DNA of 58,461 nt from the IMG/VR virus record IMGVR_UViG_3300044678_001332, positions 1 through 58,461 of that record, one strand, 5' to 3'. This stretch comes from a virus. Its lineage: Duplodnaviria > Caudoviricetes. Below are positions 1,002-50,726 of this stretch, one piece after another. The notes beneath the pieces were generated by a model. It saw only the letters and a program-made list of their open reading frames with translations, was not told where the DNA came from and did no database searches. The position numbers and the translations under genes are program-made. Numbering within the stretch: the first letter of the stretch is position 1; every line of letters starts with the position of its first letter.

Positions 1002-1073
1002 TGTTTCCACTAGGAATCGAACCTAGATTGATGGTTTAGAAAACCATTGTTCTATCCGTTGAACTATGGAAAC
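1002..1073 (-). tRNA. tRNA-Arg (anticodon UCU)
   Basis: GTTTCCA/TGGAAAC acceptor, GTTC/GAAC D stem, ATGGT-TT-TCT-AA-ACCAT anticodon arm, CTAGG-TTCGATT-CCTAG T arm. CCA not encoded. Confidence 0.92.
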
Positions 1074-3602: not shown

Positions 3603-4100
3603 TTAAGCCATAGAAGAATAATCAATTTCTACTGGTTGGGGAGCTTGCCACACTTGTAATTTATTCCAAGATGATAAATCCATCGATGAATAAAGAGTTT
3701 CCATTTGTGGAAGTATTACATTATGACCTGTTGTGTTGTCACCCCATGACTTCTTGTACTCTTGATAATTCTCATGAGTAATCTCAGCAACATTTACGTC
3801 TTTACTGACATAAATATGTACTGATTTATTTTGTTCATAGCTGTAATTTACTTCTCTTCCAAAAGCATTAAAGCTAATGAAAGTAAATTTCCTATTGTTA
3901 CTATCAACAACAACCTGATTAATTACAGGTTCTTCATGAATACTTAACATTAATTCCATAGCAACTTCTGGATTAGGTGTTGCATATATTACCTTTAGTA
4001 AGTTATCAACATCCATTCCGCGATACTTAGACTCTAAAGCTGCTTTAAATACTTTAGAAAATTCTTGTTGATTGTTTTGATTGTTAGCTAATTTAGCCAT
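3603..4100 (-). CDS. Hypothetical protein
   Basis: 165-aa ORF preceded by the shared early leader motif. Confidence 0.7.
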   Translation of the reverse strand: MAKLANNQNNQQEFSKVFKAALESKYRGMDVDNLLKVIYATPNPEVAMELMLSIHEEPVINQVVVDSNNRKFTFISFNAFGREVNYSYEQNKSVHIYVSKDVNVAEITHENYQEYKKSWGDNTTGHNVILPQMETLYSSMDLSSWNKLQVWQAPQPVEIDYSSMA

Positions 4101-4130
4101 TTTATTTGTGGTTTAAAAGGTTACAAAAAA

Positions 4131-4695
4131 ATTAGTTGTAATACTACTACTGTGGAGATCAACCCACCCAACTCTATAGTTATATCACCTGAATATAACT
4201 CCTATCCTCGTAGTATTACAACTATAATTGGTTGTTAAGTTACCAACTTAGCTGCAGTGATTAAGTATTTCAACTTAATTTACATTACTCCAGATTTATA
4301 CCCTGCTATATCTGGTAAACAGTTAAAACACCTAAAACTTTGATAGAGTACAGTAAGAGTTCTCTATTGTACTTTCATTCTTACTACCTTAACAGCTTCC
4401 TTTGTGCATTTCTACATCAACATCAGAGTTTCAGCTAATTAAGCTAAGGAGTATAAGACCGACCTTACACTAACTTGTAATTAAATCTCAAAATATACCT
4501 TATAGGTGCTGAATGAGTATTACAATATTGTTAGTCTATCAAAGAATTAGGTGTTGTTTGCACTCAGTTGTAGTCCGCTAGATGTGTTAGTAAGGAAATA
4601 CCTATACTACAACTGTTAACCATAAGGTTAGTGCAAATGTGAAACAGGTGAGAGCAGAGCCACTAAATAGTGGATGCTCTACAACCTGCAGAACT
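4131..4695 (-). ncRNA. Putative structured non-coding RNA tract (multi-hairpin)
   Basis: No ORF in the track. Stems at 4133-4147/4210-4224, 4327-4347/4535-4555, 4287-4316, 4557-4637 and ~4646-4688. Strand inferred from flanking genes. Confidence 0.5.
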
Positions 4696-4696
4696 T

Positions 4697-5059
4697 CTAA
4701 ATTAATCCATAATTCTCTGGATTATCTAAAGCCATTTGTGCCATATATTCTATGGCTGGATAACTCACAGTTATTTCAAAGAACTGTAATAATCCTATCT
4801 CTTCAGCCTGAAGTATAGTTGTTCCTTCAGGTAGTCTCCCGCCCATAAACTGAGCAACATATAAAGTGTCTTTATTAGACAACTTTACATTTATTCTATT
4901 CATGGGAACACCTAAATGATCAGCAAGGTCTTGATGACCAATAGCTGATTGGCATTCATTAAAGTTGATATGTTCCTTTTTAATAGGAACAACTTCAATA
5001 GTTGCAACGCTATCTATAAGCATTTGCAACGAAAACGCATTTCCAATGATTTTTTTCAT
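4697..5059 (-). CDS. acrIII-1: AcrIII-1 / DUF1874 (STIV B116-like) cyclic tetra-adenylate ring nuclease, anti-CRISPR type III
   Basis: Family motifs in order: NAFSLQML, SAIGH, NRINVKL..KDTLYVAQ, RLPEG..L..EEI..LQFFEI. Colinear with SIRV1 gp29 as I recall it. Confidence 0.85.
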   Translation of the reverse strand: MKKIIGNAFSLQMLIDSVATIEVVPIKKEHINFNECQSAIGHQDLADHLGVPMNRINVKLSNKDTLYVAQFMGGRLPEGTTILQAEEIGLLQFFEITVSYPAIEYMAQMALDNPENYGLI

Positions 5060-5526
5060 TGTTTTAAGATTTAAAAAGTTAGTAAAAAATGGAATTCCAC
5101 CACATGTGATAACGTACTAGTTTATCTCTGATAAGTATGACTTATCTATGCCTTTCTGATATAGTATTACTATACGTGAGTGTAAACTTCTAACCTTGAA
5201 CCTGTATCCCAACAGAGGCTTCTTCGTAGTTTTAATATCTCAGTCCTTACACCGACTTTGACAACTATGCTTAAACACAACAACCACATTTCGCAGTTAT
5301 TACATATACACATAGACCTTCAGCTTTAAAGTTAAGCTAGAACTCCAGATTATAAAATGTCTGGTCATTTGATTTATTATACTCCATTACAAAACCCATA
5401 AGGATTAAATTACATGTAATATAGAGAGTGGTTATCCTGTACACAGCACCACTAAACAACCCCATTAATTTATAAGTGAATGGACACTATACATAGTTTA
5501 CTCTATGTACCCTTATTGCTAAGGTA

Positions 5527-5725
5527 ATTGCCCCTCTGCACTCAATTGTAATAAGGTTTATTCTCTACGCACTGATGATTAGGTCGTCCTATAAATAGAA
5601 GTCTAATCATACACACTATTAGCTAAATAAACATTGGCCAACTCTTACACAAACAATATGTGCAGTTCTCACCTTTATATTACAACTGCTCACCCTTGGG
5701 AAGTGAGTTATGGTGCATTAGCAAT
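5527..5725 (-). ncRNA. Twister ribozyme (P1-type) with large P5 insertion
   Basis: Minus strand reads ATTGC-TAA-TGCA-CC-ATAA-CTCAC-TTCCCAAGG-GTGAG-CAGTTGTAATA...TATTACAATTG-AG-TGCA-GAGGG-GCAAT. P1, UAA site, P2, P4 with UCCCAAG loop and the GAGGG pseudoknot partner are all present. Confidence 0.75.
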
Positions 5726-5781
5726 GTGCTCTTACTAAACTCACAACATGTGAGAACCTAGGAGCAATGGTTTTTGGCAAT

Positions 5782-6162
5782 TTAAATACTTGATTTAGAT
5801 AGATATAATTCCATACCAATTTTCATCTTATTAAATTTAGGTGAAAATATAATTTCAGGATATCTGCAATACTTAAATATAACTTCTAATTTCTTTTTAT
5901 CAAAGAATTCAGAGTATATTGTAATATCACTGTAATCATCTTCATCAGATTCAATGTGTCCTTTTAATTCACCATTACATTGGTTAATAAGGTAAGACAA
6001 AACCTGTTTTAAATCATCATTTTTAATGAGATTCAAGATTTCTTGTGTTTGATCAATTGTGTTCACGTTTTTTGAATTGAGGATTAGTGCTATATATACT
6101 ATAATGTTCCAACAATAGCACTTAGCTGGAAACATGTCAAATTCTATCCTTTTGAATACCAC
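5782..6162 (-). CDS. Hypothetical protein (start uncertain)
   Basis: 126-aa ORF from a GTG start. Confidence 0.5.
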   Translation of the reverse strand: MVFKRIEFDMFPAKCYCWNIIVYIALILNSKNVNTIDQTQEILNLIKNDDLKQVLSYLINQCNGELKGHIESDEDDYSDITIYSEFFDKKKLEVIFKYCRYPEIIFSPKFNKMKIGMELYLSKSSI

Positions 6163-6192
6163 CTAATAATCAACAACTTACAACAAGTTACA

Positions 6193-6231
6193 ATAAGTAT
6201 AGTACAGTTGTAATAACCATACTATACTTAT
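6193..6231. repeat. 12-bp perfect hairpin with CAGTTGTAATA in the loop
   Basis: ATAAGTATAGTA/TACTATACTTAT. Confidence 0.7.
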
Positions 6232-39090: not shown

Positions 39091-42000
39091 ATGTCAGTAA
39101 GCAAGAATACTTGGAACAAAGGATTAAATTCAGATTTATCAAAACTTAAACCTCAACAGGATAGTTACCTTGATGCTAAAAACATCAGGGTAATTACTGA
39201 TGAAGGTTCATCTACACTTGCTATAGAAAACATTAGAGGTAATGTATTTAGTTTTAAATTACCTAAAGTCAATAATACTTATAAAATTAACTTTATTAAT
39301 TTAACTGGTAGTGTTGACATTACAATTTCAAGAGGTTTAAATTCAGAAACATTTACTATACCTAATGTTGAACAAAAGGATAATGAGTTTATAGCAAATG
39401 AACTTAATGCTTTAATCCAAGCATCAACTCTACCATATAAACAATATATTATTGCTTACTTTAATTCAAGATATTTAGTAGTATATGATTTTCTACCACA
39501 ATCTTTACAATCATTAACGCAAGAAATAACTATAACAACTGTTCCTGATTGTTCAGCATTAAGAACTAATGCTGTTGATAATCATACTATTCTTGGTTGG
39601 GGATATTATAATGATAATCTTGTTCTAATTAGTTGTAATGAAACAAGTAACTCTGAAGATCCTTCTGGTGAAGAAGGGTTTGTATGGGATGCAAAATATA
39701 TTTATTTAAATGATACTACAAACAGTATTGAAAATATTGATGGTAATTATTTAAATCCAGCTTTTCATTTAAAGTATGCAGGTAAACTAAATCTATCTAG
39801 ACAGTATGCTATCAATAAACATTTAAAATGTAGATATGAAAGTACAAATACTGTAAGAATAGTTTGGACTGATTGGTATAATAATTTAAGAAATATGAAT
39901 ATTGCTGACCCTCAAGTTTGGGCTACAGTAGAAGAGTTATTATCTTATTTACCAGCACACTTACCACAGAAACCTATTGTAACTAATATTATAAATGGTG
40001 GTGGTATACCATCAGGTAAAATACAATACTTCTATAAACTATTTACTAATCAAGGTGCTGAAAGTAGTTATTCACCATTAAGTAATTTATTAATACTTAC
40101 AGGTGCAGCAGGTACTAACTTTGCTGGACCTGGTAATCCTCCATCAGGAAGTACAGCAATTGGTAAATCTGTACAAATAACTTATTCTGGAATAGATACA
40201 AGTTATGATATTATTAGAGTAGGATATGTTATTTATCAAACTCCTGATTTTCCAGAAGCTTTCTTTTTTGATGAAAAGCCTGTACCTGATGATGGAGTAT
40301 TAGTTTTAGTTCATAATGGTAATGAAAATGATATACCATTAGGATCAGCTACAGAAATAAATAATCTTAATAGACCACCAGAAGTATTTAAAACTATTGA
40401 TGTTGTAAGAAATAGATTGTTTGCTGCTAATGCTAAAACTAAATACTTTGATTTAGATGGAGAATTTGATTCTAGAGTTTATAGATATAATTCTTCTCAA
40501 GTAGCTGATTTATATAATAATGATGATACTTTTGGTACACCATCTGTACAAATAGATTATACTAATCCAATTCCTACAATAACTATTGAAGGAACTACAT
40601 TTACTCCTACTACTCAGCAAGAAGCATATGAAATATTAACTCAAGATATACCTGATACATTTGATTTAATTAATCCATTTAATGATGAAAACCCAGATGC
40701 ATCAGTAAATCCATTCTCTAATGGTAACTGGATTGCTAATTCACAGTTTAAATATCAGAGTGATGGTACAACAATAGGTGGATCAGGACCTAATATATCA
40801 TATGAGTTTGTTTATGAAACTAATATTGCTCATACAGGTAATACATATTTAAGAGGTAATATAAGTATTAATCCAAGAATTGATAGCAATGGTAACTATA
40901 TATCAGAGTTATCTGATGGATATACTTACATGGGTGGTAATAATAATTATTTCCAATCTCACAAAAGTCCTGTATTTGAAACATTGTTTACAGGATATGC
41001 TAGAGGTGAAGTATATAGATTTGGTATTTTATTTTATGATATATATGGTTATCCATCATATGTTAATTGGATAGGTGATATTAAGTTTCCATTTGCTAAT
41101 GATGATAGTGGTGACTTTGGTTTAACAGCACCTACACCTAATACTCCATCAGGACCATGCTTTATAGTTATTCCTGATCCTGAAAGAATGCCTGGAGGTT
41201 GGGATATGTTTAATGCTTTTGCATATAATAGTATAGAGTTTTCATTTGAACCATCTGGTACAGTATTCTTTACATGGAATCCTACACCAAGTAATAATGA
41301 TATACCAGGATTTGTAGCAGCATTTAATGATCCTTCAACAGGTAACACAGGTGGATTAAATGCTTTTGATCCAGGTGATGGTTCTATTATTATACAAGGT
41401 GCTAATGTTAATCAAGATATGCAAATTTTTGCAGATGGAATACCTTTTATAGCTCCATCTCAATTTGAAGATTATACTTTTTCTGCACCTACTAATGATG
41501 TTGTTTTAAAACAATTAGGTATTAAACTTTCATTAGATACATCTACAGACCAGTTTCAAGCTATTAGTGATAAGATATCTGGATGGTCTTATGTAAGAGT
41601 TAGAAGAAATTTAGAAAATAAAAGTAAACTTGGTACAGGATATTTACAACCAACCTTTGCAGGAAATATTGATATACCTAGTGGTGTAGGTGATTATTCT
41701 ATAATGCCTTATGTTAGAGATTATAATAATGATGTTAATGCTCCAACAGCATCTAGTAGCTTTTTATTTAATAGATGGGGATTTGATATAGTTACAGGTA
41801 ATGGAGGACAACTTCCATATGAAAGAATTAGATTAGGTTTTCAAATATTTAATTCTCCTAACTTTTTATTACAACAAGTAGGTCAATTTGCACAAGATGA
41901 TTTTATAAGACTAATAGGTAGAACTGAAAAGAAAGCATATAGAGTAGAATACTCCACACAAAACTCAAGTATATTATCTCCATCATTTATTAACTATGGT

Positions 42001-44013
42001 ACTGTTAATGGAGCATATGCTTTTTGGATAATGTCAGGTGATTATATATATGATTATACTGATACTACACCATTACCAAATGTTATTGATAATCAACTTA
42101 CTACAAGTGATTATTTAAATACAAATCCATTGTATCAAAATGTATTTCAATTAAATGGTTTTAAATATATTGGAAGAACCTTTCCTTCAAATACTCTTCA
42201 AAATCAACCAGCACCATTTAGTAGCATAAGATTTTTTAATATGGCTACATATAATGTTACACAATATGATACCCAATCTCAAGATAAAACATTCTTAGAA
42301 TGGGGTGCTGAAACAATACTTGTTGCATTTGATGGATCAACTTCTAATTTTCCAGATACAAGTGCTATATTTGATAATAGTGATGTAGTAGGAGAACCAT
42401 ATGGTGGATGGATGTTGTTTCCATTTTACTTAGCATCTTATGAAAGATATCTAGTTAAACAATATGGAGGTAATACTAGATCTGCTAGATATGGTAATGA
42501 GTATATATCTACAAATCACTATCTACCATATACAGTAACTACAACAGGTATTGTTGGTAACAATGTATATGGAGGTGATACATGGGTTAATTACTTTGAT
42601 TGGCAAAGAAGTAACCCTAATCCTAGTACAGGATTCTTTAATTATAATCAAGGTTATGAACCACCTCTAACAGATGATAATTATAAAATATTAGGAACAG
42701 CAGTTTACTTTCCAGCAGAATGTTGTTTTCACAGTGAGTTAAATATTAACCCTAACCATGCATCATCAAGAACTACTGATACACCTATAACTATAGATAA
42801 CTATCAATTTAATCCAGCATACTCTCAACAGAATACAACTAATACATTTTTATCTAAATTCTTTTTACAACAAAACTTAGGTGAAGAACCTCATACAATA
42901 TACGGTTCTAATCCTAAATTAGATAATGAGTTATTTGATTCTTGGAGAAACTTTTTAATTAATAATAAACTAACAGTTAATGGTAACTATGGTGAAATTA
43001 ATAGACTAGTTCAGTTTAAAGATAAATTATTTTACTATCAGAATGATGCCTTTGGTGTTGCATCTGTTGATGAAAGAGTACTTGCTAATGAAGCTGATGT
43101 TACTCAAACTCAATTAGGTACAGGTACTTTATTACAAAGATTTGACTATGTATCTACTGAAACAGGAGCTAAACATTCTTTTGCAGTAGAAGCTACAGGT
43201 TCATCTATTTATCACTATGATGCTTTTATTAATAAGTTATTTAAATACTCAACTACTAAAGGTAAAGATGGTACTTCTTCAACAGGTGTATCACCACTTA
43301 CAGATATAAAAGGTTTAAGTGGATTCTTTAGAACAGCATTTACAAATACTGAAATTAAAATAAAAGATAAAACTTTAGCAGCTGGTTCAAGAGTAGGAAT
43401 TACATCTGGATACAATTCAGAATATAACACAGTTTATTTTACATTCTTTGATGAAACTAAAGATGTACAGTATACAATAGCTTATAATGAGTTATTAGAA
43501 GCGTTTGAATCTTTTTATGATTTCTATCCTTCTTTATATATTAATATGAGAAAGAGATTCTTATCAGTAGATCCTTTAAACACCTCATCAACTTATATAC
43601 ATAATTTAGGATTAAGAAATACTTTTTACAATAACACATATCCATCACAAGTTAAATTTAGAGTTAATGAGAATGCTGACTTTGTAAAAACATTTGATAA
43701 CTTCTATATTAATACTGAAGTAATTAGTGTAGCAACAGATCAACAGTTACCTGAAACTATTACTACTTATAGTATATCTAATGACTATCAAATAGTTAAT
43801 GAAACAATTAGTAACTTTACTCAGAAGATTAGATCTTGGAGAAAACAAATACCAAGAGATGAAACTAATCCTAACTTAAATATAAAACCAAGAATATCTG
43901 ACAAATACATTGATGTATTATTTAAACATACTATTAGTGGAGGAGATAAGATATTTAGATTACATGATGTGTTAACTGAATATTCAATGAGAAGTAAAAT
44001 ACTACCTAGATAA
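39091..44013 (+). CDS. Tail stabilisation/muzzle protein (crAss-like)
   Basis: 1640 aa; N-terminal KGLNSD...Y.DA.NIR, NRLFAAN, GY.RGEVYRFGI, DSWR.F, YNE....F.SFYD. Confidence 0.75.
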   Translation: MSVSKNTWNKGLNSDLSKLKPQQDSYLDAKNIRVITDEGSSTLAIENIRGNVFSFKLPKVNNTYKINFINLTGSVDITISRGLNSETFTIPNVEQKDNEFIANELNALIQASTLPYKQYIIAYFNSRYLVVYDFLPQSLQSLTQEITITTVPDCSALRTNAVDNHTILGWGYYNDNLVLISCNETSNSEDPSGEEGFVWDAKYIYLNDTTNSIENIDGNYLNPAFHLKYAGKLNLSRQYAINKHLKCRYESTNTVRIVWTDWYNNLRNMNIADPQVWATVEELLSYLPAHLPQKPIVTNIINGGGIPSGKIQYFYKLFTNQGAESSYSPLSNLLILTGAAGTNFAGPGNPPSGSTAIGKSVQITYSGIDTSYDIIRVGYVIYQTPDFPEAFFFDEKPVPDDGVLVLVHNGNENDIPLGSATEINNLNRPPEVFKTIDVVRNRLFAANAKTKYFDLDGEFDSRVYRYNSSQVADLYNNDDTFGTPSVQIDYTNPIPTITIEGTTFTPTTQQEAYEILTQDIPDTFDLINPFNDENPDASVNPFSNGNWIANSQFKYQSDGTTIGGSGPNISYEFVYETNIAHTGNTYLRGNISINPRIDSNGNYISELSDGYTYMGGNNNYFQSHKSPVFETLFTGYARGEVYRFGILFYDIYGYPSYVNWIGDIKFPFANDDSGDFGLTAPTPNTPSGPCFIVIPDPERMPGGWDMFNAFAYNSIEFSFEPSGTVFFTWNPTPSNNDIPGFVAAFNDPSTGNTGGLNAFDPGDGSIIIQGANVNQDMQIFADGIPFIAPSQFEDYTFSAPTNDVVLKQLGIKLSLDTSTDQFQAISDKISGWSYVRVRRNLENKSKLGTGYLQPTFAGNIDIPSGVGDYSIMPYVRDYNNDVNAPTASSSFLFNRWGFDIVTGNGGQLPYERIRLGFQIFNSPNFLLQQVGQFAQDDFIRLIGRTEKKAYRVEYSTQNSSILSPSFINYGTVNGAYAFWIMSGDYIYDYTDTTPLPNVIDNQLTTSDYLNTNPLYQNVFQLNGFKYIGRTFPSNTLQNQPAPFSSIRFFNMATYNVTQYDTQSQDKTFLEWGAETILVAFDGSTSNFPDTSAIFDNSDVVGEPYGGWMLFPFYLASYERYLVKQYGGNTRSARYGNEYISTNHYLPYTVTTTGIVGNNVYGGDTWVNYFDWQRSNPNPSTGFFNYNQGYEPPLTDDNYKILGTAVYFPAECCFHSELNINPNHASSRTTDTPITIDNYQFNPAYSQQNTTNTFLSKFFLQQNLGEEPHTIYGSNPKLDNELFDSWRNFLINNKLTVNGNYGEINRLVQFKDKLFYYQNDAFGVASVDERVLANEADVTQTQLGTGTLLQRFDYVSTETGAKHSFAVEATGSSIYHYDAFINKLFKYSTTKGKDGTSSTGVSPLTDIKGLSGFFRTAFTNTEIKIKDKTLAAGSRVGITSGYNSEYNTVYFTFFDETKDVQYTIAYNELLEAFESFYDFYPSLYINMRKRFLSVDPLNTSSTYIHNLGLRNTFYNNTYPSQVKFRVNENADFVKTFDNFYINTEVISVATDQQLPETITTYSISNDYQIVNETISNFTQKIRSWRKQIPRDETNPNLNIKPRISDKYIDVLFKHTISGGDKIFRLHDVLTEYSMRSKILPR

Positions 44014-44015
44014 TT

Positions 44016-47000
44016 ATGGCTGAAAAAAATTCACTCTGGAAAAACATTAGAAAAAAAGCAGCACAAAACAAAAGAACTGGTGCTACACCTAAAAAACCTA
44101 CTAAAGAAATGCTTAGGCAAGAAAGGAAAATTAAAGCTAAAAAATATTATGCGGGTGGACCTATAGGTGAAGGTGATGATAAAAATAAAGCATTAAAAGG
44201 TACTAATGATACATTAATAGCACCTACGTTAAATACACAAATTGTGGAAGAAGAAGCTCCACAATGGATGAAAGATAAAGAAACTATTAGACCTGATGAA
44301 ATTAATTTTTGGGAAAGTTTTAATCCTAAAAAATGGGGATTAAATGATTATTCAAATTATAGTTCTTTTAATTCTGCTTTTAGAAATGCTAGAGAAGCTG
44401 GTGAAGATGAGTTTGTATGGAATAAAGAAAGATATAATACTAATTTAATACCTAAAGATATTAGTGATCAGTATTGGGATTCTAAAAAATTTATACAAGA
44501 TTATTATACTAATGAACCTTTTATTCCATTAGATACAAACTATTTTGATCTACATGATTTTAATGATAAACTATCAAAAGATAAATATGGATATACTTGG
44601 CAAGAATACTATGATAAAGTATCAAAAACTCCAGTATATTCTAAAGACAGTGGAAGATCAGATGAAGAAGGAAAGATTCTGGATAGTTATTTTGATACTT
44701 TAGGTTTATTAAGCAGATCTGGTTACTATAGTAGTCTTTCAGATAAAGAAAAATCTGATTATTATACTTACCAAAAAAGTAAGTATGTAGACGCTTTAAA
44801 TGATCCAAATTATTATTTTTCAATTACATCTCAACCAAATCCTAAAAACCGAGTTTTAGGATATCAACATAGTGGTGATAAAAAACTATATGCAAGTAAT
44901 ACTGGTAATAGAGAAGATTTTACAACATTTATTCATGAGCTTTCACATAAAGGGGATTCAAAAAGTAGATCAAGCTATAATAATGAAAGTAACAGAATCC
45001 CTACAGTAGATACAGATGCACTTAATAAGTTTGGTAATAAACTTTCTCAAAAAAGATTTAATTATGTTAGTGATCCTACTGAAACAGAAGCTAGAAAAAT
45101 GTCTACTCTTTATTTTATGAACAAGGTTCTTAAAAAAGATATTAGTTCTGGAAAAATAAAAAATAAAGATCTTACTGAATTGTATAATCTTTATAACTCA
45201 GAAGGAGGATATTGGTCCTCTAAATCTATACCTGGTGATGTAAGAGATTTATTAGAATTATATAAATATCAATGGAATGATTTATTAAAATATTTAAATA
45301 ATGATTTTTCATATTATAAGCCTGTCCAAAAAGCTAAAGGTGGACCTACAGGTAATGACGAAGATCCATTTAAATCAAAATTAAATCAAGGTCAAACTGT
45401 AGGTAAAACATCTCAAGATTGGTTAGCTAACTGGGTACGAAGTCCTAAATTTGCCGAGAGATTAAATCAAAACTTTCCAGCTCCTGCAAGTGATCTTGAA
45501 AAAAAAATATATGGTAATAAAGAAGCTAGAGAAAGAGCATCAGCTGCTAATTTAAAAACTATTAATAAAAGAATACCTGATGTAATAAGTGACATATATG
45601 ATACTAATTTTTTATATAATACAAATCCAGAAAGTAATACTGGACTTTTAAATACATATAGAAGTAGATTAGGAGATCCTAAATCTATTAGAGACTTTGA
45701 TAAAAACATGTCTACTAATCCTCAAGGATTTACTGATCAAGATGGTAGAATTATTATTACAAATGAAGCTAATACTCAATATGGTCCTCAATCAGTTGGA
45801 GTACATGAATTAACTCATAAAGTATCAGAAGGTGATAAAACATTAGATAAATTATTTAGAGGTAAATTTCAAACACCTAGTCCTGATAAAATTGATGCTA
45901 ATTATAAGAAAGATGAAATGTATCCTTTCTTAATGCAAATGAGATTTGATAATAAATTTCAACCAGGAGAAGAAATTACTCCAGAAAGATTAAAACAAAT
46001 TAGAGAGTCAGGACCTAATAATCATTTATTTAGATATTATAATGATGATGAAATATCTAAATACTTAAATACACTTGCAAGTAATCAGACACAAGCACCT
46101 ATGCAATATGCAGCTAAAGGTGGATATATGTATGCAGAAGGTGGTGATGGTGAAGATGAACCTGTAACATTATATAAAAAAGCTTATTATAATCCTGATC
46201 AAGATAGAATAATTCCATATGCTGGTAGTCAAGATAATGAATACTATGTAACACCTGATACTCCTCAAGGTATTGATTTTGAAAGAAGACTTCCTGAACT
46301 TGAAATAACAGATGATTATAATTCAACAGAAGATTATTATGGTAATAAAAGGTATATTCCTTCTGAAACAGGATTTATTCCAAATCCAAATTATAAACCA
46401 TTAGCATCAGGTAGAGCTGAACCAACACTAGGTCCAGTTGAAGCTGCTTTATTTGCACCTGTTGCAGGAGCTGTTGCAGGAACTATGGCATCTAAAGCTG
46501 TTCCTGCTGTTGTATCAGCTTTAGAATTACCTGCAGTAGTAGGTGGTAGAACTATACCTTTGTTAACTGGAAATAATATTTTAGGTGTAACAGGAGGAAT
46601 AACTGGTGCTAATATGCTAGGATCAGATATAAATAGTGGTTACTATACATCAAATGCATCTATTGAAGATAAAATTGCAAGAGGTTTAGAAACAGGACTT
46701 CTTATAGGAACTTCTCCAGGTATGTTACCAGCAATGGGTTCGGCATATAAAAATGTTAAAAACTCTTTAGGTAAAAATAAAGAATTATTATCTAATTCTG
46801 CGTCTAATCAATTACCTCCACCACCACCAGAAACATTTAATATAATAGATGGTTATGTTCCTGGTAGTTATGTACCTGATTATGCATCTCAATTTACTCC
46901 ATTAGAAACTTTTAATAATTCAAAATTTTCTCTTAAAGATATTAATAATAAAATTAAATCTTTAAAAAATATTACATATAAAGGTAAATCCATATTTAAA

Positions 47001-50000
47001 AATAAAAAAATTGGACACTATGATGAACCATTAAAAAATGATTCTTCATATGAAACTTGGAAAAAAACAGTTTTAGGAGAAAATGCTGATAGTGTAATAT
47101 CATTACAAGAATTTAAAGATGCTCATAAACAAAGTATAGAATATTTTAAAAGTATTGGCGCACCTCTTACTACAGGAAAAGAACATGGTTTGTTTATAAA
47201 AAACATACTTGCTGATAGAATACCAAATTTTACTTCTCTTCAATTTGATGATAAAGGTAGAAGACTTATATTTGATCCAGATATGTATGGTTCAGATATA
47301 CAACCAGCTGAATTGAGACAAATGGAAAAGTTTATTACAGGTGAGGGATATGATATTACTAAAATGACTCCTAAAGAAAGAATGTTAATGGAAGCTTATG
47401 CTCATGGATATGATACTTCATTAAATGAAGTATTAAGAGGTAGTAGTCAAGGTCCAGTTTCTAAATATTATTTAGAACAAGGTCAAATATTAAATGAAGG
47501 TATTTTAAAAAATAAATTTCAAAATCCATCTTTTGTAAGAAGAGGTGTACAATCAGATTATACTGTAGAACTTTTAGACCCAATAACATATAAACCAACA
47601 GGAGTAACTAAATTAAGATCTGAATTAACTAAAGGTGATACTTTTATAGATAAATCATTTTTATCAACTTCTGCAACACCTAGTTATTGGGGTCCTACAG
47701 AACTTTCAGAATTAATAGAAATACCTGGAGGATCATTACAATCTTTTGCAGTACCTGAAGCTGCTACTGCAACACGCTTTAGAGGTGAAAATGAAGCTAT
47801 ATTACCTACTGGTTTAATTAGACAAGTAATTGATAACAATCTTCACAATCATCCAGAATTTTTTGATTGGAGAGCAAAATTTAGAACAAAAATATTAAAT
47901 CCTTACGAAGATGGTGGTACTATTAATCCATACATGTATTATGCAGGTGGACCAATGCAATATAAAAGAGGTGGATTACTTAAAGATATAGGTTTAGGTG
48001 TTGCTGATTTTGCATTAAGTACTATTGGTGGTGTTACTGGTATTAAATCAATGAAAGATATTGTTAATGAAAAACAATATTCTAATGATAGATTTGATGC
48101 AGGTGCAAACTTTGCAGGTAGTCTTGGAAGTACTGCTTTAAAATTAATACCTGTTACAGCACCTATTGCAAATGCTGCAGGTGTGGTTGGTGGTGCAGCT
48201 AACAAAGCTTTTGGTATTGATGCAGCAAATTATAATCCTAATCAAGAAGTAAGTGACTTAGAAAAAGCAGGTAATATTGTTGGACAAGCTGGTAATGTTG
48301 CTAGTATGTTTATGGGTAGTACGTCAGGTGTATCAGAAGATGCTGGTAAATTTATGCAAGGTGTAGATAAAATAAATCAATTTGGACAATCACCTGCAGG
48401 TCAACTTTTAAACCAAGGACTATCTTTTGAACAAGGTGGTGATATAAATAAATTTAATAACTTTACAAACTCTATGAGAGACAGATACAACAGTTATAGA
48501 AACAAGTACTCTAGAGGAGGAAAGGTTCAAGATAATGCTGAAGAAAAACTTGAATATTTTGGTATGACTAAAGTACCTAATCATTCAGGGTTTCATTATG
48601 AAAATCCTAATGGAGGTTCATATGGAGGAACAAATGCTTCATTTGAAAAAAATGAAATTGTTTTACATGCTAAAGGTGGTCCTACTCCAGGACCTGGAGA
48701 ATTTGTTTTTCCTTCTGAAGTAAATGGTCAAAAAAACAGACCAGCATTTCTTGAATTAGATAAAAATGGTATGCCAATTCCTTTAAACATGACTATAGCT
48801 CAATTTGTAGAAAGAGAAGTTAATAAAGGAAGTGAATTTAGAAAAGAAAATTCTTTAGGAAGAGAAAGAGTAGATATGGCTAATCAAAAAGCAATGGACA
48901 TGGTAGCTTATTATGATCAACTTGATCAACAGCAAGCACAACAAAAAGAAATGATGGTTAATGGTGCTTTACAATATGCAGCTGCAGGTGGTAAGATAAA
49001 TAAAGATATTGAAAAGATTTTAAATGATGATATTCAAAGTTATATTAAAGCAGATAATTATTATGCTTATGGTGGATATCTTCCTAAAAATAAAAAATTT
49101 AACATGCCTTACTCTAATGGTGGTAAACTACCTAAAGAAGTTTTAAGAGCAAGAGTTCAAGCTCACATGTCAATTAAAGAAGCTAATTCTTATGTAGATC
49201 AATATGCTAATGGAGGATCAATGGATCCACCAACTGCTAAAAGAAGTTATGTAAAGCAAGGTTCTAATAGTATGCTAGGTAATAATTTAAATAATACTGA
49301 GTTTGGTTCTAGAATTATAAATGAATATGGTAATGGATTACCTAATGATACTTCTTATATTTATCAATCTCCTACTGAAGATTATTTCTACAATACAGGG
49401 CAGAATACTCAAAATGGTAAACCAGTATCTAATTATAACTCAGGTTCTGTAGCACCTTTTAGTGCTAATGTATATCAAGATAGAATTAAAAGATTAGCAG
49501 GTTATGCAAATGGTGGTCCTGTAGTATCTAATGTAAATCAAGACTTTGGTTTATATGCACAGAACAGAGGTGGTATGATGATGGCTAATGGTGGTATGAT
49601 GCCACAGAATGATAGTATGTCTAAACAAATAGCTGCTGCTTTGCAACAAGGTGCAGATCCTCAACAATTACTTCAACAATTACTTCAACAGTTAGTTAAG
49701 TCAGGAATGGATCCTCAACAAGCTCAAGCAATGTTAGAAAATATTATGGGTAGTATGCAAGCATCACAAACTCAAGCTCCTATGATGGCTATGGGTGGTG
49801 AAATGTATGCTCCTGGTGGATTCTTTGATAATTTACGTTCTGATTTTAACCATGGTAGAAGAATGGCATTTAACAAACCTTATAGAAATGCTTATAACTT
49901 AGCTAAAGGTTATAATACTATTAATCCTAAAAATTACCCAAATGTTTTTACAGAAGGTAATGGACAAGTAGGAGGTGAAGATTATGCTGGTTTATATCCT

Positions 50001-50726
50001 ATGACACAAGATGAAGCTACACAATACCAAGGTTATGACCCTACAAAAGTTACACCTTCTTCTACTACTAAAAGTGGATTACCAGTAGGTAATGAAGATA
50101 TATTTGGTAATGATAAATTAGGAAAAGGTTTAGCAATAGGTCAAGCTGCAATTCCATTAATAGAAGCAGGTTATCATTTGTTTAATAAACCTAAACATAT
50201 TAAAGCACCTGTTGTACAAGATGCAACTGTTAATTATGAACAATCTAGAATAAGAGATCAAAGACAAACAAATTTGACTAGAAGTTCTTATTTAAATATG
50301 TTAAGAAATTCAGGTATGTCAGCAAATCAATTTGCTGGTAATGCTAAAGATTATCTTTTAAATTCTGCTGCAGAACAAGCAGGTAGAGATGCAACAAGTA
50401 TTCAAAATGAACAAAATCAAAATGCTGTTGCTAGAGCACAAGCTGAAAATTTAAATGCTCAAAATAGATTTGCAACTGATCAATTAAATTATGAGATAGA
50501 TCAAAACAGACTTGGTAATATATTTGGTGCATTTAATAATGCAGCTACTATGGGAATGCAAGGTTACAATGATATAAAACAAAATGAATATGATAGAATG
50601 AGAGCATTGAGTACACAATCAGAAAATGTAGTACCTGTAAATGTTAATGGTAGAATATATCAAGCAACAAAAGGACCTGATGGTTATTACTTTAATGGTA
50701 AAAAAATAGCAGAATTTGGAGTTTAA
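44016..50726 (+). CDS. Multidomain putative virion cargo protein: two HExxH zincin-like domains, ADP-ribosyltransferase domain, repeated xxxGG motifs
   Basis: HELSH (44934), HELTH (45804), R-G/STS/ENE ART motifs (~47538-47795), ~19 GG motifs; positioned after the muzzle gene. Confidence 0.7.
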   Translation: MAEKNSLWKNIRKKAAQNKRTGATPKKPTKEMLRQERKIKAKKYYAGGPIGEGDDKNKALKGTNDTLIAPTLNTQIVEEEAPQWMKDKETIRPDEINFWESFNPKKWGLNDYSNYSSFNSAFRNAREAGEDEFVWNKERYNTNLIPKDISDQYWDSKKFIQDYYTNEPFIPLDTNYFDLHDFNDKLSKDKYGYTWQEYYDKVSKTPVYSKDSGRSDEEGKILDSYFDTLGLLSRSGYYSSLSDKEKSDYYTYQKSKYVDALNDPNYYFSITSQPNPKNRVLGYQHSGDKKLYASNTGNREDFTTFIHELSHKGDSKSRSSYNNESNRIPTVDTDALNKFGNKLSQKRFNYVSDPTETEARKMSTLYFMNKVLKKDISSGKIKNKDLTELYNLYNSEGGYWSSKSIPGDVRDLLELYKYQWNDLLKYLNNDFSYYKPVQKAKGGPTGNDEDPFKSKLNQGQTVGKTSQDWLANWVRSPKFAERLNQNFPAPASDLEKKIYGNKEARERASAANLKTINKRIPDVISDIYDTNFLYNTNPESNTGLLNTYRSRLGDPKSIRDFDKNMSTNPQGFTDQDGRIIITNEANTQYGPQSVGVHELTHKVSEGDKTLDKLFRGKFQTPSPDKIDANYKKDEMYPFLMQMRFDNKFQPGEEITPERLKQIRESGPNNHLFRYYNDDEISKYLNTLASNQTQAPMQYAAKGGYMYAEGGDGEDEPVTLYKKAYYNPDQDRIIPYAGSQDNEYYVTPDTPQGIDFERRLPELEITDDYNSTEDYYGNKRYIPSETGFIPNPNYKPLASGRAEPTLGPVEAALFAPVAGAVAGTMASKAVPAVVSALELPAVVGGRTIPLLTGNNILGVTGGITGANMLGSDINSGYYTSNASIEDKIARGLETGLLIGTSPGMLPAMGSAYKNVKNSLGKNKELLSNSASNQLPPPPPETFNIIDGYVPGSYVPDYASQFTPLETFNNSKFSLKDINNKIKSLKNITYKGKSIFKNKKIGHYDEPLKNDSSYETWKKTVLGENADSVISLQEFKDAHKQSIEYFKSIGAPLTTGKEHGLFIKNILADRIPNFTSLQFDDKGRRLIFDPDMYGSDIQPAELRQMEKFITGEGYDITKMTPKERMLMEAYAHGYDTSLNEVLRGSSQGPVSKYYLEQGQILNEGILKNKFQNPSFVRRGVQSDYTVELLDPITYKPTGVTKLRSELTKGDTFIDKSFLSTSATPSYWGPTELSELIEIPGGSLQSFAVPEAATATRFRGENEAILPTGLIRQVIDNNLHNHPEFFDWRAKFRTKILNPYEDGGTINPYMYYAGGPMQYKRGGLLKDIGLGVADFALSTIGGVTGIKSMKDIVNEKQYSNDRFDAGANFAGSLGSTALKLIPVTAPIANAAGVVGGAANKAFGIDAANYNPNQEVSDLEKAGNIVGQAGNVASMFMGSTSGVSEDAGKFMQGVDKINQFGQSPAGQLLNQGLSFEQGGDINKFNNFTNSMRDRYNSYRNKYSRGGKVQDNAEEKLEYFGMTKVPNHSGFHYENPNGGSYGGTNASFEKNEIVLHAKGGPTPGPGEFVFPSEVNGQKNRPAFLELDKNGMPIPLNMTIAQFVEREVNKGSEFRKENSLGRERVDMANQKAMDMVAYYDQLDQQQAQQKEMMVNGALQYAAAGGKINKDIEKILNDDIQSYIKADNYYAYGGYLPKNKKFNMPYSNGGKLPKEVLRARVQAHMSIKEANSYVDQYANGGSMDPPTAKRSYVKQGSNSMLGNNLNNTEFGSRIINEYGNGLPNDTSYIYQSPTEDYFYNTGQNTQNGKPVSNYNSGSVAPFSANVYQDRIKRLAGYANGGPVVSNVNQDFGLYAQNRGGMMMANGGMMPQNDSMSKQIAAALQQGADPQQLLQQLLQQLVKSGMDPQQAQAMLENIMGSMQASQTQAPMMAMGGEMYAPGGFFDNLRSDFNHGRRMAFNKPYRNAYNLAKGYNTINPKNYPNVFTEGNGQVGGEDYAGLYPMTQDEATQYQGYDPTKVTPSSTTKSGLPVGNEDIFGNDKLGKGLAIGQAAIPLIEAGYHLFNKPKHIKAPVVQDATVNYEQSRIRDQRQTNLTRSSYLNMLRNSGMSANQFAGNAKDYLLNSAAEQAGRDATSIQNEQNQNAVARAQAENLNAQNRFATDQLNYEIDQNRLGNIFGAFNNAATMGMQGYNDIKQNEYDRMRALSTQSENVVPVNVNGRIYQATKGPDGYYFNGKKIAEFGV

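Follow-up and report, generated by a model that had tools for sequence, protein, structure and literature searches.

The question raised by this locus is whether an element lying ahead of an acrIII-1-like gene in a lake-water phage encodes a self-cleaving ribozyme of the twister type. The window, by which we mean the whole stretch of DNA analysed (58,461 nucleotides), is an IMG/VR virus fragment with terminase, portal and head protein genes. The head protein is at most 32.5% identical to its counterparts in crAss-like Bacteroides, Flavobacterium and Cellulophaga phages, and a putative Bacteroidota host is read from these distant capsid relatives only. DNA runs from lake water in four further studies contain at least half of the sampled words. 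The twister-type layout occurs as a single instance in the 58-kb window, at 5725-5527 on the minus strand, and its parts and downstream neighbours, in the direction of the RNA, are as follows.

5725-5721, minus: 5' strand of P1, AUUGC, pairing with 5531-5527 (5 bp)
5720-5718, minus: 5' strand of L1 (U5720, A5719, A5718), predicted scissile bond between U5720 and A5719
5717-5714, minus: P2, UGCA, pairing with UGCA at 5540-5537 (4 bp)
5713 with 5541, minus: C5713:G5541, fifth pair of P2, from covariation
5713-5708, minus: junction after P2, C5713 followed by C5712 and AUAA (5712-5708)
5707-5703 with 5693-5689, minus: P4, CUCAC with GUGAG (whole hairpin 5707-5689)
5702-5694, minus: L4 loop, UUCCCAAGG
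5688-5678 with 5553-5543, minus: base of P5, 11 bp, with one G.U pair (G5686.U5545)
5677-5554, minus: interior of P5, 124 nt (whole P5 arm 5688-5543)
5610-5603 with 5582-5575, minus: inner hairpin of P5, AUGAUUAG/CUAAUCAU
5542-5537, minus: A5542 and G5541, then P2' UGCA
5536-5532, minus: 3' strand of L1, GAGGG, with G5536 at the place of the conserved active-site guanine
5531-5527, minus: 3' strand of P1, GCAAU, partner of A5725-C5721
5526-5087, minus: downstream RNA, with RNA contig coverage and no ORF longer than 47 aa
5059-4697, minus: acrIII-1-like gene (DUF1874 / STIV B116-like), 120 aa

Every item that a preliminary description of this DNA had named, namely P1, the UAA site, P2, P4, the complementarity between the P4 loop and GAGGG, and P5, is present in this layout, and the structured insert it had announced lies inside P5 with a length of 124 nt rather than about 125. 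The GGG of GAGGG (G5534-G5532) is complementary to C5700-C5698 of L4, a contact termed T1, and roles for the GAGGG bases can be proposed by analogy with the twister literature. The minimum-energy unconstrained fold of 5725-5527 yields P1, P2, P4 and P5 (z = -2.61; 3 of 200 shuffles equal it), and the P5 arm folded alone reaches z = -2.70 (1 of 200 shuffles). Even when two mismatches are allowed, the window holds a single match to the 5' core pattern TAA-N4-CCA-N2-A-N5-TTCCCAAGG, against a chance expectation of 0.02 per window (2 of 100 shuffles with a match). Pairs of the G.U type on the minus strand, including G5686.U5545, indicate that the RNA is read from that strand. A further hairpin, CUCACA-UGU-UGUGAG at 5740-5754 (minus) with UUU at 5737-5739, stands 12 nt before P1; since it is kept in a relative (L147) that has no twister there, it belongs to the end of the upstream gene and not to the ribozyme, and it is not a P0.

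Rfam, the standard RNA catalogue, has missed the large phage family of which this element is a member. At least 119 loci in viral contigs match the 5' core pattern; among the matches listed, 101 have at least four of the five P4 pairs, and 94 of these 101 also carry the P2 complement and GAGGG within 420 nt downstream. The main set, again among the matches listed, comprises 85 distinct elements, or 86 with that of the window, and within it the invariance of TAA, CCA and TTCCCAAGG is partly forced by the search pattern and that of GAGGG by the filter. The stretch from P4' to P2' measures 14 to 290 nt among the 86 elements and 148 nt in the window. A targeted scan for U at the first L2 position added 17 further loci. 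With a covariance model built from 69 members the window element scores 96.5 bits (E 1e-25), and the same model found no second full copy in the 58-kb window. Neither the 53-nt core nor the 901-nt stretch 5300-6200, used as queries, found the family among 50,697 GenBank phage records. Across 185,579 species genomes the pattern is present in five contigs only, all from metagenome-assembled genomes, and since their labels are unrelated (Allosphingosinicella, Bacteroidia twice, Alphaproteobacteria and Saccharibacteria) no host can be called from genomes.

Family members sit between co-directional genes. Flanking open frames lie on the strand of the element in 40 loci versus 8, and in 21 of 56 loci an ORF of 60 codons or more begins no further than 60 nt downstream, versus 1 of 56 in the mirrored control. 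Decayed family copies were also seen (L138, L143 and 4559-4635 in the window), so not every copy need be active. One phage contig (L144, the same contig as L054) bears two family members about 200 nt apart, in one of which L4 ends in A instead of G, the first L2 position is U and the base before P2' is A.

The evidence that this layout is maintained as an RNA fold comes from a covariation alignment of 69 rows, whose members are related, so that shuffle tests on it overstate independence. Standard pairs fill 90.3% of its cells, compared with 80.4% after shuffling and 28-53% when partners are slid; no shuffle out of 500 was as high on all five measures, and double changes occur in 23 of 31 pairs. 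P4 is paired in 98.6% of cells with double changes in all five pairs, P5 has double changes in 10 of its 11 base pairs, and P2, paired in 99.7% of cells, has two pairs with double changes, one of them turning from CG to UA in 6 of the 69 rows. The sequence of P1 is different in nearly every member; it is paired in 62.8% of cells, with double changes in all six columns, and over 82 distinct contexts its mean pairing is 3.77 of 6 versus 2.80 +/- 0.12 with shuffled partners (0 of 1000 as high). The proposed twister-type layout is thus borne out for P1, P2, P4 and P5 by covariation in about 100 relatives. T1 (C5700-C5698 with G5534-G5532) shows no variation in 69 of 69 rows, partly because the pattern and the filter force it, and so offers no covariation.

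Targeted scans found hardly any variation at the loop and junction bases expected to form the active site. In the 86 elements, the junction sequence is CCAUAA 47 times and CCACAA 39 times. When viral contigs were scanned with one core position freed each time, variants at C5712 and at U5702 were found at no locus; freeing G5695 gave two loci, one a decayed copy and the other lacking P4 pairing, hence no genuine variant, and freeing G5694 gave three loci, only one of which is a family member. At the cut site itself, one relative (L148) has C in place of U.

It seems that the second tertiary contact of twisters, T2, is organised differently in this family. In a set of 100 distinct elements, the combination of the first L2 base with the base preceding P2' is C:G 82 times, U:A 15 times, U.G twice and a mismatch once, while G5694 is G in 99 of the 100 even though position 5713 changes in 17. 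C5713 therefore covaries with G5541, by which P2 is lengthened to five pairs, the new one either competing with the first T2 pair or taking its place. Canonical pairing of 5713 with 5694 can be drawn in all 100 elements, and alternation between the 5713:5541 and 5713:5694 pairings is possible. C5712 and G5695 are able to pair and are both invariant, so T2 may be reduced to this single pair. We infer an arrangement in which U5702.G5694 would close P4 and G5695 alone would bulge towards C5712, so that P2 and T2 would stack as 5+1 rather than 4+2. The suggestion that the CC after P2 pairs with GG of the loop in place of the usual GC/GC accordingly holds for C5712 and G5695, but C5713 covaries with G5541 instead. 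Likewise, the L4 loop, which had seemed about one nucleotide longer than usual, can equally be read as one base shorter if U5702.G5694 is counted as its closing pair. In PMC5408937, T2 is called the most critical tertiary contact, and an altered P2 length is said to be able to disturb the active site.

Comparison with the known class shows both a common plan and consistent departures. According to PMC5408937, a twister consists of stems P1, P2 and P4 with P0, P3 and P5 optional, has its scissile U-A step adjoining P1 (the U less conserved, the A highly conserved), builds P2 from four Watson-Crick pairs with an A-G pair added on the T1 side, forms T1 from three Watson-Crick pairs between L4 and the 3' strand of L1, and forms T2 between a conserved GC of L2 and two bulged L4 bases. 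In the present family P1, P2 and P4 are paired with double changes, a U-A step (U5720-A5719) directly follows P1 at the sequence level, and the four pairs of P2 are flanked by A5718 and G5536, with the extra covarying C5713:G5541 lengthening the other end of P2. The order P1, U-A, P2, L2, P4, P5, P2', P1' is shared with the type P1 twister with optional P5 (RF03160; Roth et al. 2014, reviewed in PMC5408937 and PMC6154101), and in both the P4 loop is complementary to the 3' strand of L1. The bacterial twisters of PMC6765202 sit between genes, as does this element in phage DNA.

Among the departures, L2 is CC and not the GC from which T2 is formed, and P2 has a fifth pair. The bases before the T1 strand (5702-5701) are UU in the window and in all family members, whereas GU is reported at this place in more than 97% of twisters (PMC4513843). 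All 100 distinct elements parsed have P5 and none has P3, in contrast to frequencies of 1% for P5 and 78% for P3 among annotated twisters (PMC6154101); the base of P5 is, moreover, conserved in sequence. Finally, the Rfam 15 twister models (RF03160 twister-P1, RF02684 Twister-P5 and the rest) are silent: they gave no match at the gathering score in the window, nor did they report anything at E <= 10 for the 451 nt around the element or for a compact 69-nt member (L046), or at E <= 1 for 20 family loci. Since this compact member is missed as well, the long insert is not the sole reason for the silence, and the check with the twister-P1 model after trimming the insert, as had been proposed, would not help. 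The search of the window's own IMG/VR record found no twister, and all Rfam models run over 4100-5850 returned neither a twister nor another credible family, only chance-level snoRNA and miRNA rows.

No Rfam match to twister-sister, which we take to be RF02681, was found on the element. Twister-sister likewise is a small RNA with several stems, occurs in phage-associated regions and has a conserved A beside its cut; however, it cuts the opposite strand and is without pseudoknots (PMC5408937), in contrast to the twister-like loop-to-loop complementarity seen here. The hammerhead and twister ribozymes of prophages (PMC6765202 and PMC10085705) also occupy intergenic spacers among co-directional phage genes, and processing of polycistronic transcripts is the role suggested for them there. 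They were described in bacterial genomes and are linked most strongly to Mu-like phage genes, whereas the present family lies in uncultivated crAss-like and other phage contigs. A literature search over abstracts and passages of PMC6154101, PMC5408937, PMC6765202, PMC10085705 and PMC4513843 turned up no account of this twister variant. The twister set of Roth et al. 2014 reportedly holds roughly 2,700 sequences, and members of the family may already be among them.

The RNA evidence bears on whether the element is expressed and where its transcript begins. Of the 24 runs listed, eight are recorded as RNA; four of these, from two studies, were compared, all as assembled contigs. The contigs that cover the element are the following.

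5105-5710: contig of RNA run X7, depth 68
5209-5708: contig of RNA run X14, depth 29
5209-5709: contig of RNA run X16, depth 33
5087-5709: contig of RNA run X21, depth 9, with 10 differences

All four end within 3 nt of each other, at 5708-5710, which is 9-11 nt inside the predicted product start A5719; no loose contig end lies there, and none of the four runs bridges 5719/5720, while the window assembly itself runs on across it. In random-primed libraries, RNA 5' ends often fall about 10 nt short. The true end of an RNA cannot be read from contigs, and transcription starting near 5710-5719 would give the same picture, so that the common end hints only weakly at an RNA of about 630 nt whose 5' end is produced by cleavage. 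Upstream of the cut there is a single X7 contig of depth 3 (5841-6019) and none from the other three runs. Depth in contigs does not allow genes to be ranked, and neither it nor gaps in coverage count as evidence here. The element seems to stand at the head of an abundant RNA. At its 5105 end the X7 contig carries 22 foreign letters, presumably Illumina adapter, which suggests a real fragment end. In a 213-nt contig of X14, matches to 5528-5554 and to 5678-5701 are separated by 62 letters of different sequence, and the contig continues past the L4 position; it looks like RNA from a related copy with part of its sequence deleted, and so a possible uncut control. Two variants of X21 (5599 and 5605) fall in the P5 interior, where one improves and the other breaks a predicted pair, and so speak neither way.

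The RNA downstream of the element (5526-5087) has no Rfam match. The slightly wider stretch 5080-5526 contains no tRNA, has no relatives among the family loci compared and folds at z = -0.61, which gives no support to one large folded RNA. Two small ORFs within it, 5337-5465 (42 aa) and 5170-5313 (47 aa), have no PHROG match, and one of the six X21 differences inside them falls at a third codon position, which in this small sample gives no coding signal, though a small protein is possible. A simple scan found no terminator near 5087-5105. By eye, a weak 3-bp hairpin followed by a run of six U can be seen there.

The P5 arm recurs beyond the element itself. Its base is kept in sequence and not in pairing alone, reading CAGUUGUAAU/AUUACAACUG in 39 of the 86 elements, and a search of 74,107 nt flanking family members found the two P5 arms 20 and 18 times, versus about 4.1 expected. 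The 124-nt interior, in contrast, has no relative among the family loci compared and is probably a lineage-specific expansion; the family tolerates anything from a tetraloop to about 270 nt at this place, the compact L046 having a 4-bp tetraloop P5 of 14 nt. At 4224-4133 (minus) a separate, perfect 15-bp hairpin has a 10-bp base, AGUUGUAAUA/UAUUACAACU, in common with the twister P5; it is followed by seven U (4125-4131) just upstream of ORF 3603-4100 and looks, from its sequence, like a terminator. A third occurrence is at 4635-4559 (minus), just after the stop of the acr-like ORF, where UGCAC, a hairpin UAACC-UUAU-GGUUA, A, a CAGUUGUAGUA hairpin and AG-UGCA make up a twister-shaped three-way junction. 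One of its arms is the P5 stem, and it is without the UUCCCAAGG loop and without GAGGG; the 69-member covariance model gives it 18.2 bits (E 0.007). Junction-only relatives of this kind were found in 8 of 14 viral loci of a further scan, and since one of them (L153) has GAGGA at the L1 position where twisters have GAGGG, the junction at 4559-4635 looks like a remodelled or decayed twister.

We consider it probable that the element is an active twister-type ribozyme in P1-open form, cutting between U5720 and A5719 and heading an RNA of about 630 nt. By this mechanism the element would be transcribed on the minus strand together with the upstream gene, P1, P2 and P4 would form, and L4 would dock on the GGG of GAGGG (T1) and on C5712, the remaining part of T2. 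By analogy with solved twisters, G5536 and A5719 would then help the 2'-OH of U5720 to attack the bond between U5720 and A5719. The 3' product would start with a 5'-OH at A5719, retain the folded ribozyme as its 5' end and finish near 5087-5105, before the acrIII-1-like gene, and the cut would serve to uncouple this RNA from the upstream message.

The same contig ends would be produced by a twister-derived three-way junction that does not cleave and that acts as a stable 5' structure or binding platform on a transcript started by a promoter near 5710-5719. The recurrence of twister-shaped junctions without catalytic loops, at 4559-4635 and in the 8 of 14 loci, speaks for such a junction, as do the off-consensus T2 and the silence of the Rfam models. 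However, L4, UAA and GAGGG are nearly invariant in the family, whereas the junction-only relatives have lost them, and the covariation of P1 requires the transcript to include a strand 5' of the proposed start. A scan for sigma-70-like promoters, with phage and Bacteroidota promoters outside its range, moreover placed none for a start at 5710-5719, and on balance we regard a non-cleaving junction as unlikely.

Less likely still is a ribozyme that is switched through P5 by a phage or host factor, or a ligand, binding to the P5 base or to the 124-nt interior. The sequence conservation of the P5 base as CAGUUGUAAU/AUUACAACUG and the recurrence of the stem, both as the hairpin at 4224-4133 and as arms in excess of expectation, speak for such control, but the interior is free in length and sequence and without relatives, and the compact L046 dispenses with all but a 4-bp tetraloop stem. 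The inverted repeats could also be read at the level of DNA, as marks of a mobile cassette or a protein-binding site with the RNA fold incidental. The recurring P5 arms are indeed inverted repeats, and in L147, which has an acr-like protein of 80% identity, conservation extends over the flanks 5775-5725 and 5087-4642, while two ORFs fill the slot of 5725-5087 and the downstream RNA is absent. This exchange between conserved flanks indicates that the twister and the downstream RNA form a swapped cassette. A purely DNA-level feature is nevertheless very improbable, for the G.U pairs would be C-A mismatches on the other strand, the element is transcribed and its orientation follows the flanking genes in 40 loci versus 8, and pseudoknot-forming loops are meaningless in DNA.

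The relation of the probable ribozyme to the acrIII-1-like gene is positional in this phage. The element lies inside a 722-nt gap between ORF 5782-6162 and the acrIII-1-like ORF 4697-5059, whose product matches PF08960 at E 1.1e-5 (25.9 bits, just below the curated cut-off of 26), phrog_5063 at E 2e-12 and PDB entries 2j6b, 2x4i and 6scf at E 1e-5 to 2e-4. We take 6scf to be AcrIII-1 itself. The earlier placement of the twister upstream of acrIII-1 stands as a position, 467 nt away, but the RNA contigs stop at 5087-5209, short of the gene. The stretch 4634-5035, which takes in most of the acr-like ORF, has no contig coverage in the four runs, and such gaps prove nothing. A conserved link between twister and acrIII-1 was rejected: none of three relatives of the gene has a model match within 2.5 kb upstream, and on the downstream side one of the three has a full twister at a distance of about 480 nt and another a partial match.

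Taken together, the observations permit a joint reading that we put forward as a whole only tentatively, and would sooner doubt than adopt. In it the family would be a distinct twister subclass in which a local fifth P2 pair replaces one T2 pair and P5 is obligatory, and the cut would give the 5'-OH of an abundant non-coding RNA, encoded by a cassette that freshwater crAss-like phages swap in. The P5 stem, GUUGUAAU/AUUACAAC, would be a reusable module that is also found alone and in junction-only relatives, and a putative phage or host factor would read P5, possibly for host takeover beside the anti-CRISPR-like gene. The role of twisters in bacteria and phages is described as an open question in PMC6765202. 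The present family offers many natural variants of the catalytic core, including a possible rewiring of T2, and the metatranscriptomes of the window hint at a predicted ribozyme heading a discrete RNA. Whether T2 can function with one pair, whether cleavage protects or releases the downstream RNA and whether the P5 hairpin has a reader are thereby made testable. It also appears that catalogue-based annotation misses a common phage family of predicted ribozymes.

Some further features of the window lie outside the element. Within the 596-nt gene-free gap 4101-4696, a 24-nt inverted repeat pairs 4327-4350 with 4532-4555 (88% complementary) and encloses 181 nt; it may be a long-range helix of another structured RNA, and RNA contigs of the four runs also touch 4500-4620. 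A tRNA gene at 1002-1073 (minus, 70.2 bits) is the sole Rfam match at gathering score in the window. On the plus strand, 39091-50726 holds two very large ORFs of 1640 and 2236 aa, the former matching a virion structural protein PHROG, which fits a crAss-like virion module.
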